Shown here: piece after piece, positions 44,849 to 46,246 of the stretch
How positions within the stretch are numbered: position 1 is the first letter of the stretch
Layout: each line of letters starts with the position of its first letter
Origin: Escherichia coli
GTDB lineage: Bacteria; Pseudomonadota; Gammaproteobacteria; Enterobacterales; Enterobacteriaceae
DNA: 64,000 nucleotides
NCBI RefSeq assembly: GCF_003334785.1
Contig: NZ_QOWV01000003.1
Strand: one strand, 5' to 3'
The notes under the pieces: generated by a model
What the model was told of the DNA's origin: nothing
Databases searched by the model: none
What the model saw: only the letters and a program-made list of their open reading frames with translations
Translations under genes and position numbers: made by a program

Positions 44849-44866
44849 CATATCTCTGAGACCGCG

Positions 44867-46246
44867 ATGCCGCCTGGCGTCGCGGTTTGTTTTTCATCTC
44901 TCTTCATCAGGCTTGTCTGCATGGCATTCCTCACTTCATCTGATAAAGCACTCTGGCATCTCGCCTTACCCATGATTTTCTCCAATATCACCGTTCCGTT
45001 GCTGGGACTGGTCGATACGGCGGTAATTGGTCATCTTGATAGCCCGGTTTATTTGGGCGGCGTGGCGGTTGGTGCAACGGCGACCAGCTTTCTCTTTATG
45101 CTGTTGCTGTTTTTACGCATGAGCACCACCGGGCTGACTGCGCAGGCTTATGGTGCCAAAAATCCTCAGGCATTAGCCCGTACGCTGGTGCAACCGTTGC
45201 TGTTGGCGTTGGGGGCTGGGGCGTTAATTGCGCTGCTGCGTACGCCGATTATCGATCTGGCGCTGCATATTGTTGGCGGTAGTGAGGCAGTCCTGGAACA
45301 GGCGCGGCGCTTTCTTGAAATCCGCTGGTTAAGCGCACCGGCGTCGCTGGCGAATCTGGTATTACTCGGTTGGTTACTCGGCGTGCAATATGCCCGTGCG
45401 CCAGTAATTTTGTTAGTGGTCGGCAATATCCTCAACATTGTGCTGGATGTCTGGCTGGTGATGGGGCTGCATATGAACGTGCAGGGCGCGGCGCTGGCGA
45501 CGGTTATTGCGGAATATGCAACATTGCTGATTGGTCTGCTAATGGTGCGTAAAATCCTCAAACTACGCGGAATTTCCGGCGAAATGCTGAAAACTGCCTG
45601 GCGAGGAAACTTCCGTCGCTTGCTGGCGCTTAACCGCGATATCATGCTGCGTTCGCTGTTGTTGCAACTCTGTTTCGGCGCGATCACCGTACTTGGCGCG
45701 CGACTGGGGAGTGACATTATCGCTGTTAACGCGGTTCTGATGACGCTACTCACCTTTACCGCCTATGCGCTGGATGGTTTTGCCTACGCGGTTGAAGCGC
45801 ACTCCGGTCAGGCATACGGTGCGCGCGACGGTAGCCAGTTGCTGGATGTCTGGCGGGCAGCGTGCCGCCAGTCGGGGATCGTAGCGTTACTGTTTTCGGT
45901 GGTTTATTTGCTGGCTGGGGAACACATCATTGCGTTACTGACGTCGTTAACCCAGATTCAGCAGCTGGCTGACCGCTATCTTATCTGGCAGGTGATTTTG
46001 CCGGTGGTTGGCGTCTGGTGTTATCTGCTGGACGGCATGTTTATAGGCGCAACGCGTGCCACCGAAATGCGTAACAGTATGGCGGTGGCCGCCGCAGGTT
46101 TTGCGCTGACGCTCCTTACGCTGCCGTGGCTGGGTAATCATGCTTTGTGGCTGGCATTAACCGTCTTTCTGGCGTTGCGCGGGCTTTCTCTGGCGGCTAT
46201 CTGGCGGCGTCACTGGCGCAATGGTACCTGGTTTGCCGCAACGTGA
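44867..46246 (+). CDS. dinF: MATE-family efflux protein DinF (459 aa as called; start uncertain)
   Basis: 12-TM MATE-like ORF downstream of and co-oriented with lexA; first ATG at 44867 lies inside a hairpin, alternative start ATG 44921 (MAFLTSSDK...). Confidence 0.88.
   Translation: MPPGVAVCFSSLFIRLVCMAFLTSSDKALWHLALPMIFSNITVPLLGLVDTAVIGHLDSPVYLGGVAVGATATSFLFMLLLFLRMSTTGLTAQAYGAKNPQALARTLVQPLLLALGAGALIALLRTPIIDLALHIVGGSEAVLEQARRFLEIRWLSAPASLANLVLLGWLLGVQYARAPVILLVVGNILNIVLDVWLVMGLHMNVQGAALATVIAEYATLLIGLLMVRKILKLRGISGEMLKTAWRGNFRRLLALNRDIMLRSLLLQLCFGAITVLGARLGSDIIAVNAVLMTLLTFTAYALDGFAYAVEAHSGQAYGARDGSQLLDVWRAACRQSGIVALLFSVVYLLAGEHIIALLTSLTQIQQLADRYLIWQVILPVVGVWCYLLDGMFIGATRATEMRNSMAVAAAGFALTLLTLPWLGNHALWLALTVFLALRGLSLAAIWRRHWRNGTWFAAT

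Follow-up and report, generated by a model that had tools for sequence, protein, structure and literature searches.

The lexA-dinF junction of Escherichia coli: a conserved stem-loop, a Rho-dependent fall in RNA beyond it, and the start of dinF

The genes lexA and dinF of E. coli are handled in the literature as one SOS-regulated unit, and just after the lexA stop codon there is a hairpin, followed by a run of T, which contains the first in-frame ATG of the dinF reading frame. What does this structure do to the gene that follows it? The original prediction, made from the sequence, offered three possibilities: partial termination or attenuation between the two genes, control of dinF translation by the structure, or a real dinF start further downstream, at ATG 44921. 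We followed these up in the window, by which we mean the whole stretch of 64,000 nucleotides of E. coli DNA that was analyzed, and in which the order of genes around the junction is plsB, dgkA, lexA, dinF, yjbJ, and zur (ORF list, and RefSeq annotation of identical DNA). A window position equals the MG1655 (NC_000913.3) position minus 4,212,875, and the end of the lexA stop is thus found at 44848 in the window and at 4,257,723 in MG1655. The 401 bases around the hairpin have a match in 5426 of 5426 complete E. coli genomes, mostly at an identity of at least 99%. A sequence scan gave no sigma-70-like promoter on the plus strand between the lexA start and the dinF end, and a dinF promoter in the lexA-dinF spacer was dropped as a candidate on this basis. 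The features to which we refer are the following, in window coordinates:

44240..44848, plus strand: lexA coding sequence, 202 aa, with the stop TAA at 44846-44848 (ORF list, RefSeq annotation of identical DNA).
44849..44858, plus strand: spacer of 10 nt, pyrimidine-rich, from the lexA stop to the first paired base of the hairpin (sequence, fold).
44859..44888, plus strand: stem-loop of 13 bp, with the 5' arm at 44859-44871, the loop GCCT at 44872-44875, and the 3' arm at 44876-44888; dG -24.1 kcal/mol.
44867..44869, plus strand: ATG within the 5' arm of the hairpin, the K-12 reference dinF start (459 aa), not the functional start.
44886..44894, plus strand: U-rich tract TTTGTTTTT (sequence, fold).
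44889..45000, plus strand: C-rich, G-poor, weakly structured stretch, a candidate Rho-utilization region that overlaps the dinF start (composition).
44909..44911, plus strand: weak Shine-Dalgarno-like AGG, 9 nt 5' of ATG 44921 (anti-SD duplex energy -2.5 kcal/mol).
44921..46246, plus strand: dinF as most likely translated, 441 aa, MAFLTSSDKALW... (PGAP, TetRP, NF007690, orthologues).
45074, plus strand: region of Rho termination mapped by Adams et al. (2021, eLife, PMC7815308, Supplementary file 2), at MG1655 4257949; it falls within dinF, some 185 nt beyond the hairpin.

The hairpin itself is where it was predicted to be, with ACCGCGA at 44861-44867, TCGCGGT at 44880-44886, TTGTTTTTC at 44887-44895, and the lexA TAA at 44846-44848 all correctly placed. 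Its existence is confirmed by folding, and only the 12-nt loop originally assigned to it has to be revised, since that loop pairs internally and leaves a 13-bp stem with a 4-nt loop. In the folded RNA, 44859-44871 pairs with 44876-44888 around a GCCU tetraloop, and GUUUUUC follows. The minimum free energy of -24.1 kcal/mol compares with -11.3 ± 2.3 kcal/mol for 200 dinucleotide shuffles (z = -5.63), none of which folds as well. From the lexA stop it is 10 nt to the first paired base, and 12 nt to the ACCGCGA arm and the G+C core. Between 43600 and 47300 we found seven terminator-like matches, which is no excess over the shuffle expectation of 4.0 ± 2.4, and the hairpin is by far the strongest of them, with 13 pairs, 8 of these G-C.

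In its anatomy, the structure resembles an intrinsic terminator. Such terminators have a G+C-rich stem of about 5-14 bp and a short loop, as does the hairpin, and the required U-tract is present in the window as TTTGTTTTT at 44886-44894, with 8 U in 9 nt, the first three T of which are able to pair with AGA at 44859-44861. On a d-score that combines a formula with modern energy parameters, and is a rough classifier only, the E. coli hairpin with TTTGTTTTT scores as a canonical intrinsic terminator, at d of about +16 to +29. The formula is reportedly that of d'Aubenton-Carafa from 1990. Rfam 15 gave no covariance-model match at 44849-44900 at E <= 1, and its sole match in 43600-46700 is a sub-threshold chance one inside dinF. 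A REP/BIME identity for the E. coli hairpin was rejected, as the nine REP matches in the window (up to 3 mismatches) all lie elsewhere.

We consider next where dinF begins. The ATG at 44867-44869 lies wholly inside the 5' arm of the hairpin; it is in frame with dinF and, as had been noticed from the sequence, no start codon of the mechanical ORF 44867..46246 (459 aa) lies before it. Public annotation conflicts on its use. The MG1655 reference starts dinF at 4,257,742, which is window 44867 (459 aa), and the UniRef name DINF_ECOLI is attached to this form, whereas PGAP starts the gene at the equivalent of 44921 (441 aa) in all 10 of the 10 RefSeq genomes inspected. There are 1092 members in the protein cluster of the 459-aa form, and all of the named ones that were read belong to Escherichia or Shigella, as against 7911 members, drawn from several genera, in the cluster of the 441-aa form. 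Start-site profiling, which had been suggested as a check, favors the shorter form. Tetracycline-inhibited ribosome profiling (TetRP) lists for dinF a "new site" at +54 nt, with ATG as its codon and MAFLTSSDK... as its peptide (Nakahigashi et al. 2016, PMC4909307). With the depth columns for dinF interpreted from the pattern of neighboring table rows, the annotated ATG has a read depth of 0/0/0 and the new site one of 0/24.9/10.5, so that the depth at 44867 is 0 in three of three samples (Nakahigashi 2016, PMC4909307). The family model points the same way: the NCBIfam model NF007690 (DinF equivalog, MATE transporter) matches the 459-aa ORF with 906.8 bits, against a cutoff of 409, and its positions 1-440 (of 441) cover residues 19-458 of this ORF. 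The match thus runs over the full length from the first model position, as expected of a DinF protein, and it sets in at Met-19, the residue encoded by ATG 44921.

A comparison of DinF N-termini across orthologues leads to the same codon. Our sample consisted of 80 lexA-dinF loci, namely the window and one locus from each of 79 Enterobacterales species. The codon equivalent to 44921 is ATG in 66 of the 80, an ATG stands one codon later in 13, and the remaining locus has GTG, which puts an ATG at this position or the next codon in 79/80 loci. Conservation of the amino acid sequence starts exactly at the Met of 44921, and the conceptual translation upstream of it is unrelated between genera. An upstream ATG at -18 codons is found only in the window and in three other sampled loci (L004-L006). 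Counted in codons from the conserved Met, an in-frame stop interrupts the upstream frame at -9 in L007 and E. whittamii and at -8 in Citrobacter and Salmonella, and in E. albertii the frame upstream of this Met contains no start codon. Opening the 31-nt ribosome docking site is estimated to cost 23.2 kcal/mol at 44867, compared with 9.1 at 44921. Shine-Dalgarno pairing is weak at both ATGs (-2.7 kcal/mol at 44867 and -2.5 at 44921); GAG lies 6 nt upstream of the former, and a CAGG/YGG motif recurs in the orthologue alignment at the position of AGG 44909..44911.

It is therefore well supported, by PGAP, TetRP, NF007690, the orthologous loci, and the stops in sister species, that ATG 44867 is not a start codon and that dinF is translated from ATG 44921, as the third of the predicted possibilities had it. 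The codon at 44867 is a chance in-frame ATG that lengthens the frame only in E. coli/Shigella and was chosen by longest-ORF annotation. With the start at 44921, the hairpin lies in a lexA-dinF spacer of 72 nt, not 19, and not inside dinF, and it does not gate dinF translation. In a hairpin that sequesters a ribosome-binding site or start codon, the start in use lies within the structure; here, the start in use is 44921, and the dinF ribosome site stands 33 nt beyond the hairpin, unsequestered. Control of dinF translation by the structure thus loses its footing, given that the codon which the hairpin does enclose drew no TetRP reads in any of the three samples and is not conserved. The corrected start is not new, as both RefSeq and the literature have it.

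If the hairpin does not act on translation, does it act on transcription? The data of Adams et al. (2021) (PMC7815308) place a Rho termination region at 4,257,949, with a Rho score of 6.11 and p = 5.6e-32. Read counts upstream and downstream are 322/54 without bicyclomycin (-BCM) and 288/295 with it (+BCM), from a single experiment in which each 800-nt counting window received a few hundred reads, about 180 of the 800 upstream nt lying beyond the hairpin (Adams 2021, PMC7815308). From these counts (PMC7815308), the RNA drops about 6-fold from lexA to dinF, and the drop is gone with bicyclomycin. It is thus shown, in one published data set, that dinF RNA stands about 6-fold below lexA RNA in a Rho-dependent manner. 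Bicyclomycin may itself perturb SOS expression. The predicted partial termination or attenuation between the genes is accordingly real as a phenomenon, but its attribution to the hairpin and U-tract is not borne out, as the data point to Rho about 185 nt downstream. With Rho inhibited, the downstream/upstream ratio is 295/288 = 1.02 ± 0.08, which leaves little room for intrinsic termination; if the RNAs are taken to be equally stable, we estimate that intrinsic termination at 30% efficiency would bring the ratio to 0.75, more than 3 SD from the one observed.

Mapping of 3' ends, which had also been suggested as a check, did not reveal an end at the U-tract. The curated Term-seq lists of the same study (Adams 2021, PMC7815308) hold no 3' end in MG1655 42577xx-42578xx for LB at OD 0.4, LB at OD 2.0, or M63, a negative of limited weight, given the thresholds applied to these lists and cultures grown without SOS induction. 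For lexA the lists give a single entry, an end within the gene at 4,257,185. A 3' end at the hairpin would be expected of a leaky terminator and of an exonuclease barrier alike, and the curated lists are without one. Two hallmarks of an intrinsic terminator are thus not seen at the junction, namely 3' ends at the U-tract in vivo (one study, thresholded lists, no SOS induction) and independence of Rho, given the change from 54/322 to 295/288 with bicyclomycin. Neither lexA nor dinF appears in the supplementary tables of Dar 2018 PLoS Genet, TERMITe 2025, or SMRT-Cappable-seq 2018, and our literature search found nothing that discusses a terminator or readthrough at the lexA-dinF junction.

The RNA 3' of the stem-loop has properties of a Rho terminator. 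Bicyclomycin-sensitive readthrough is found at window 45074, and a C-rich, G-poor, unstructured stretch follows the stem-loop, which by its composition is a candidate rut. Positions 44920-44997 have 35% C and 12% G, and this C/G of 3.0 is the highest in 44240-45500. The tendency extends beyond E. coli, as the median C/G over the 80 loci is 1.55 after the hairpin, compared with 0.82 in the dinF body and 0.83 in lexA. We infer that a rut site probably lies in the C-rich stretch after the hairpin.

The hairpin recurs throughout the sampled family. All 80 spacers hold a stem-loop, with 9-21 pairs and dG from -13.6 to -25.2 kcal/mol. The z-scores of the spacer folding energies have a median of -3.24 and lie below -2 in 65/80 spacers, and 44/80 spacers are unbeaten by any of 100 dinucleotide shuffles. 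In 35 of the 60 orthologous spacers that are short, the distance from the lexA stop to the start of the stem is 10-14 nt, and a spacing of about 11 nt is seen in many genera. The sequence differs by genus, being ACCGCGATGCC... in Escherichia, CGCAGCATCGTC... in Klebsiella and Raoultella, GGCTGCGATA... in Kluyvera, and GGTGGTGCGGTA... in Cedecea, while Citrobacter and Salmonella have a longer lexA-dinF spacer with REP elements. The hairpins are too diverged to align by column, and MAFFT with RNAalifold on 42 spacers for this reason gave a consensus of only 5 pairs, each with compensatory changes; conservation was judged by folding each locus, by shuffles, and by comparison within groups. In five groups of close relatives, all 13 of the 13 variable stem pairs are still paired, 3 through two-sided changes and 10 via G-U. 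Within E. coli, the 78-nt junction has the K-12 allele in 2849 genomes and an allele that differs only at the last loop base in 2122, the two together making up 4971/5426 genomes; another sampled allele (L002) also changes the loop, and the sampled polymorphisms fall in the loop. By the rough d-score, a hairpin with an adequate T-run is found in only about 14/80 loci (Escherichia, Kluyvera, and one other, L033), and about 66/80 are without a usable U-tract; the negative d-scores of L005 and L006 are artefacts of an over-extended automatic hairpin call. The presence of a stem-loop in every locus, folds that beat shuffles, stem changes that keep pairing, and sampled E. coli variants confined to the loop together show that the hairpin structure is under selection; the U-tract is not conserved. 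We found no description of this family-wide conservation in the literature.

We put a probability of roughly 0.6 on the reading that the lexA message carries at its 3' end a conserved stem-loop, at most a leaky terminator, that Rho does most of the attenuation, and that translation of dinF begins at ATG 44921. RNA polymerase from the lexA promoter would then run on into dinF, with dinF RNA held several-fold below lexA RNA. Rho would load on the unstructured, C-rich, G-poor leader with its weak ribosome site and would terminate transcription within roughly the first 150-200 nt of dinF. The hairpin, with its 5' arm 10-12 nt past the lexA stop, would be at most a leaky intrinsic terminator in Escherichia; it would also form a barrier to 3'-to-5' exonucleases that would stabilize lexA-only RNA after Rho termination. 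As a net effect, the level of the repressor, which is abundant, and that of the membrane transporter, which is scarce, would be uncoupled within one SOS unit. The roles given here to the hairpin, a leaky terminator suppressed by the ribosome in Escherichia and a 3' barrier family-wide, are drawn by analogy with better-studied systems; under some conditions, the hairpin could still be a substantial terminator.

The strongest of the alternatives is a classical partial intrinsic terminator, in which most lexA transcripts would end at the U-tract and the readthrough fraction would supply dinF. The canonical anatomy in E. coli (a 13-bp G+C-rich stem, a tetraloop, and 8 U in 9 nt), the positive d-score, a stem invariant across E. 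coli, and the U-tract kept in Escherichia, Kluyvera, and L033 would all suit it. Yet the +BCM ratio of 1.02 is hard to reconcile with any efficiency above about 30%, which would give 0.75 or less, the U-tract has no listed Term-seq 3' end, some 66 of the 80 orthologous hairpins are without a usable U-tract, and the stem lies 10-12 nt past the stop, in the range of ribosome suppression. We regard it as unlikely. The effect of the ribosome is known from the terminator tR2, which is repressed almost completely in vivo when a stop codon lies only a few bp before it (Li et al. 2016, NAR, PMC4824070); it reaches full efficiency only beyond about 30 bp, and at 17-18 bp the efficiency is 0.12 to 0.8, depending on sequence (Li et al. 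2016, PMC4824070). The lexA stem is alike in starting 10-12 nt after the stop of a translated gene, a distance at which tR2 is strongly repressed. The Li et al. system differs in being an engineered reporter with another terminator, and the lexA distance is at the boundary of the effect. By this analogy, the terminating lexA ribosome probably suppresses the hairpin terminator.

The same proximity could be taken further, to a switch in which the hairpin, about 11 nt past the lexA stop, sets dinF on or off by transcription-translation coupling. A ribosome tight behind RNA polymerase at the lexA stop would block the 5' arm and allow readthrough, while uncoupling would let the hairpin form, after which either the hairpin itself or Rho on the exposed C-rich leader would stop dinF. 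If this were true, the DinF/LexA ratio would report transcription-translation coupling during the SOS response. We consider it distinctly improbable.

A further alternative holds that the hairpin has no present function and is a neutral relic, for example a decayed repetitive extragenic element or what is left of an ancestral terminator. REP elements at the same position in Citrobacter and Salmonella do indicate that the site tolerates replacement, and no 3' end has been mapped at the hairpin. A relic would, however, hardly persist as a hairpin in 80/80 loci despite the turnover of its sequence, with every observed stem substitution keeping the pairing, spacers that fold far better than shuffles, and, in the E. 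coli genomes sampled, polymorphism restricted to loop positions; nor does the hairpin of E. coli match the REP consensus, nine copies of which lie elsewhere in the window. We think this explanation very unlikely.

Finally, the view of the hairpin as a translational operator for a long DinF isoform from ATG 44867, through dual starts or melting by ribosomes finishing lexA, draws on a frame that is open from 44867 in E. coli K-12, on the 459-aa form in the reference genome and UniRef DINF_ECOLI, and on GAG 6 nt before the ATG, but it is largely refuted and has next to no likelihood, given the TetRP depth of 0 in 3/3 samples, an extension that is missing or stop-interrupted outside E. coli sensu stricto (sister Escherichia species included) and falls outside the NF007690 model, the 23 kcal/mol needed to open the site, and an added "peptide" that is nothing other than the terminator-like hairpin and T-tract read in frame.

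The value of these results is mainly practical. The Rho region is already in a published supplement (Adams 2021, PMC7815308), and what we describe is ordinary operon punctuation with a lingering annotation error, with no new mechanism and no challenge to current understanding. The MG1655 record and DINF_ECOLI still carry the 459-aa DinF, the first 18 residues of which are the hairpin and T-tract translated. Papers give lexA and dinF as "19 bp apart," where the actual spacer has 72 nt with strong structure. ORF-library clones and deletion designs based on the long annotation would be expected to add or remove these bases. The locus is also a clean, conserved example of a single SOS promoter from which a repressor and a membrane pump can be supplied in widely unequal amounts, and it lends itself naturally to tests of how a stop-proximal hairpin, ribosome proximity, and Rho interact.

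In kind, the lexA hairpin is a fresh example of a familiar type of element. Partial terminators and attenuators inside operons include T1 between rpsU and dnaG, and the rplL-rpoB attenuator. The lexA-dinF junction is like them in having a hairpin and U-tract between the cistrons of one promoter unit, with the downstream gene lower; it differs from them in that its drop is Rho-dependent and mapped downstream of the hairpin, with no U-tract 3' ends recorded. Intercistronic REP/BIME elements, such as that of malE-malF, stabilize mRNA, and Rho-linked attenuation at BIMEs has reportedly been described by Espeli and colleagues in 2001. They share with the lexA hairpin the position and, presumably, the job, and REP copies replace the simple hairpin in the Citrobacter and Salmonella spacer, although the E. 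coli hairpin is a unique sequence outside the REP family.

A third comparison is with the stable stem-loops that shield the 3' ends of Rho-terminated E. coli transcripts from exonucleases, usually without a U-tract (Dar and Sorek 2018, NAR, PMC6061677), and immediately downstream of which a rut site is found (Dar and Sorek 2018, PMC6061677). The lexA hairpin differs from this class in that it is internal to an operon instead of at its end, in that the precise steady-state 3' end at the stem base which defines the class, and which depends on trimming by PNPase/RNase II, is absent from the curated lists of Adams 2021, and in that, in Escherichia, it does carry a U-tract. In other respects, the likeness is close: the hairpin is stable and closely follows a stop codon, C-rich RNA that is a candidate rut lies directly 3' of it, the loss of RNA downstream is bicyclomycin-sensitive, and most Enterobacterales lexA hairpins have no U-tract. 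Taken together, these parallels suggest that the lexA hairpin may work much as do the protective stem-loops of Rho-terminated transcripts, the attenuators inside operons, and the intercistronic REP elements.

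Among the 60 lexA-dinF loci whose spacers are no longer than 100 nt, the gap that separates the stop codon of lexA from the base where hairpin pairing begins is tightly clustered, though the hairpin sequences vary: it measures 10-14 nt in 35 loci, with a mode of 11. This clustering may reflect either selection, through proximity of the hairpin to the ribosome, or common ancestry of the spacer. The spacer is enlarged, to 120-295 nt, in loci from Citrobacter and Salmonella (L009-L022 and L043) and from Citrobacter koseri (L067:2034-2328), and in these enlarged spacers between one and four REP-like palindromes replace the single unique hairpin found in other genera. 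In the window, we counted as a copy of the REP consensus GCCGGATAAGGCGTTTACGCCGCATCCGGC any match with at most three mismatches to it, and found nine copies versus zero expected by chance, at the following positions:

5467-5692: triplet of REP copies, 98 bp spacing
22550-22579: REP copy
32313-32342: REP copy
36450-36570: pair of REP copies
41126-41155: REP copy
54013-54042: REP copy

E. coli strain 43905 (NZ_CM135146.1, L084:1846-2560) carries a copy of IS200C, with tnpA annotated, at a point equivalent to window position 44891, within the T-tract directly after the lexA hairpin (GCGGTTTGTT|IS200|TTTTTTCATC). The insertion places about 0.7 kb between lexA and dinF, and despite it PGAP keeps the 441-aa start of dinF.

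As regards coding starts, plsB is one more case, besides dinF, in which the longest ORF overruns the annotated start: the mechanically called ORF (41168-43651, minus strand; 827 aa) extends 20 codons beyond annotated plsB, which is 2424 nt long and ends at 43591. Inside dinF, a sub-threshold Rfam match to Chlorobi-RRM (45949-46024, plus strand; E = 0.12), which scores 23 bits where the gathering score is 45, is almost certainly due to chance.

Published Term-seq data (Adams 2021, PMC7815308) place a reproducible RNA 3' end 70 nt into the lexA ORF, at window position 44310 on the plus strand (MG1655 4257185), found in LB at OD 0.4 and in one further condition, with a Rho score of 0.73 and an intrinsic-terminator score of 1.05. 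Because no hairpin is evident at the site, this end may be a processing site. The same study reports minus-strand ends at 43930 (MG1655 4256805; score 88707) and 43870 (MG1655 4256745; score 45283). These very high-scoring ends, which lie antisense to dgkA and upstream of plsB, suggest that the minus strand gives rise to a short, abundant RNA or that plsB has a long leader subject to attenuation; an Rfam search returned no family match there. Two further Rho termination regions have been mapped (Adams 2021, PMC7815308). The one at 46267 on the minus strand (MG1655 4259142) is antisense to dinF at its 3' end, and the one at 46777 on the plus strand (MG1655 4259652) is antisense to zur. Rho appears to restrain antisense transcription around dinF-yjbJ-zur.
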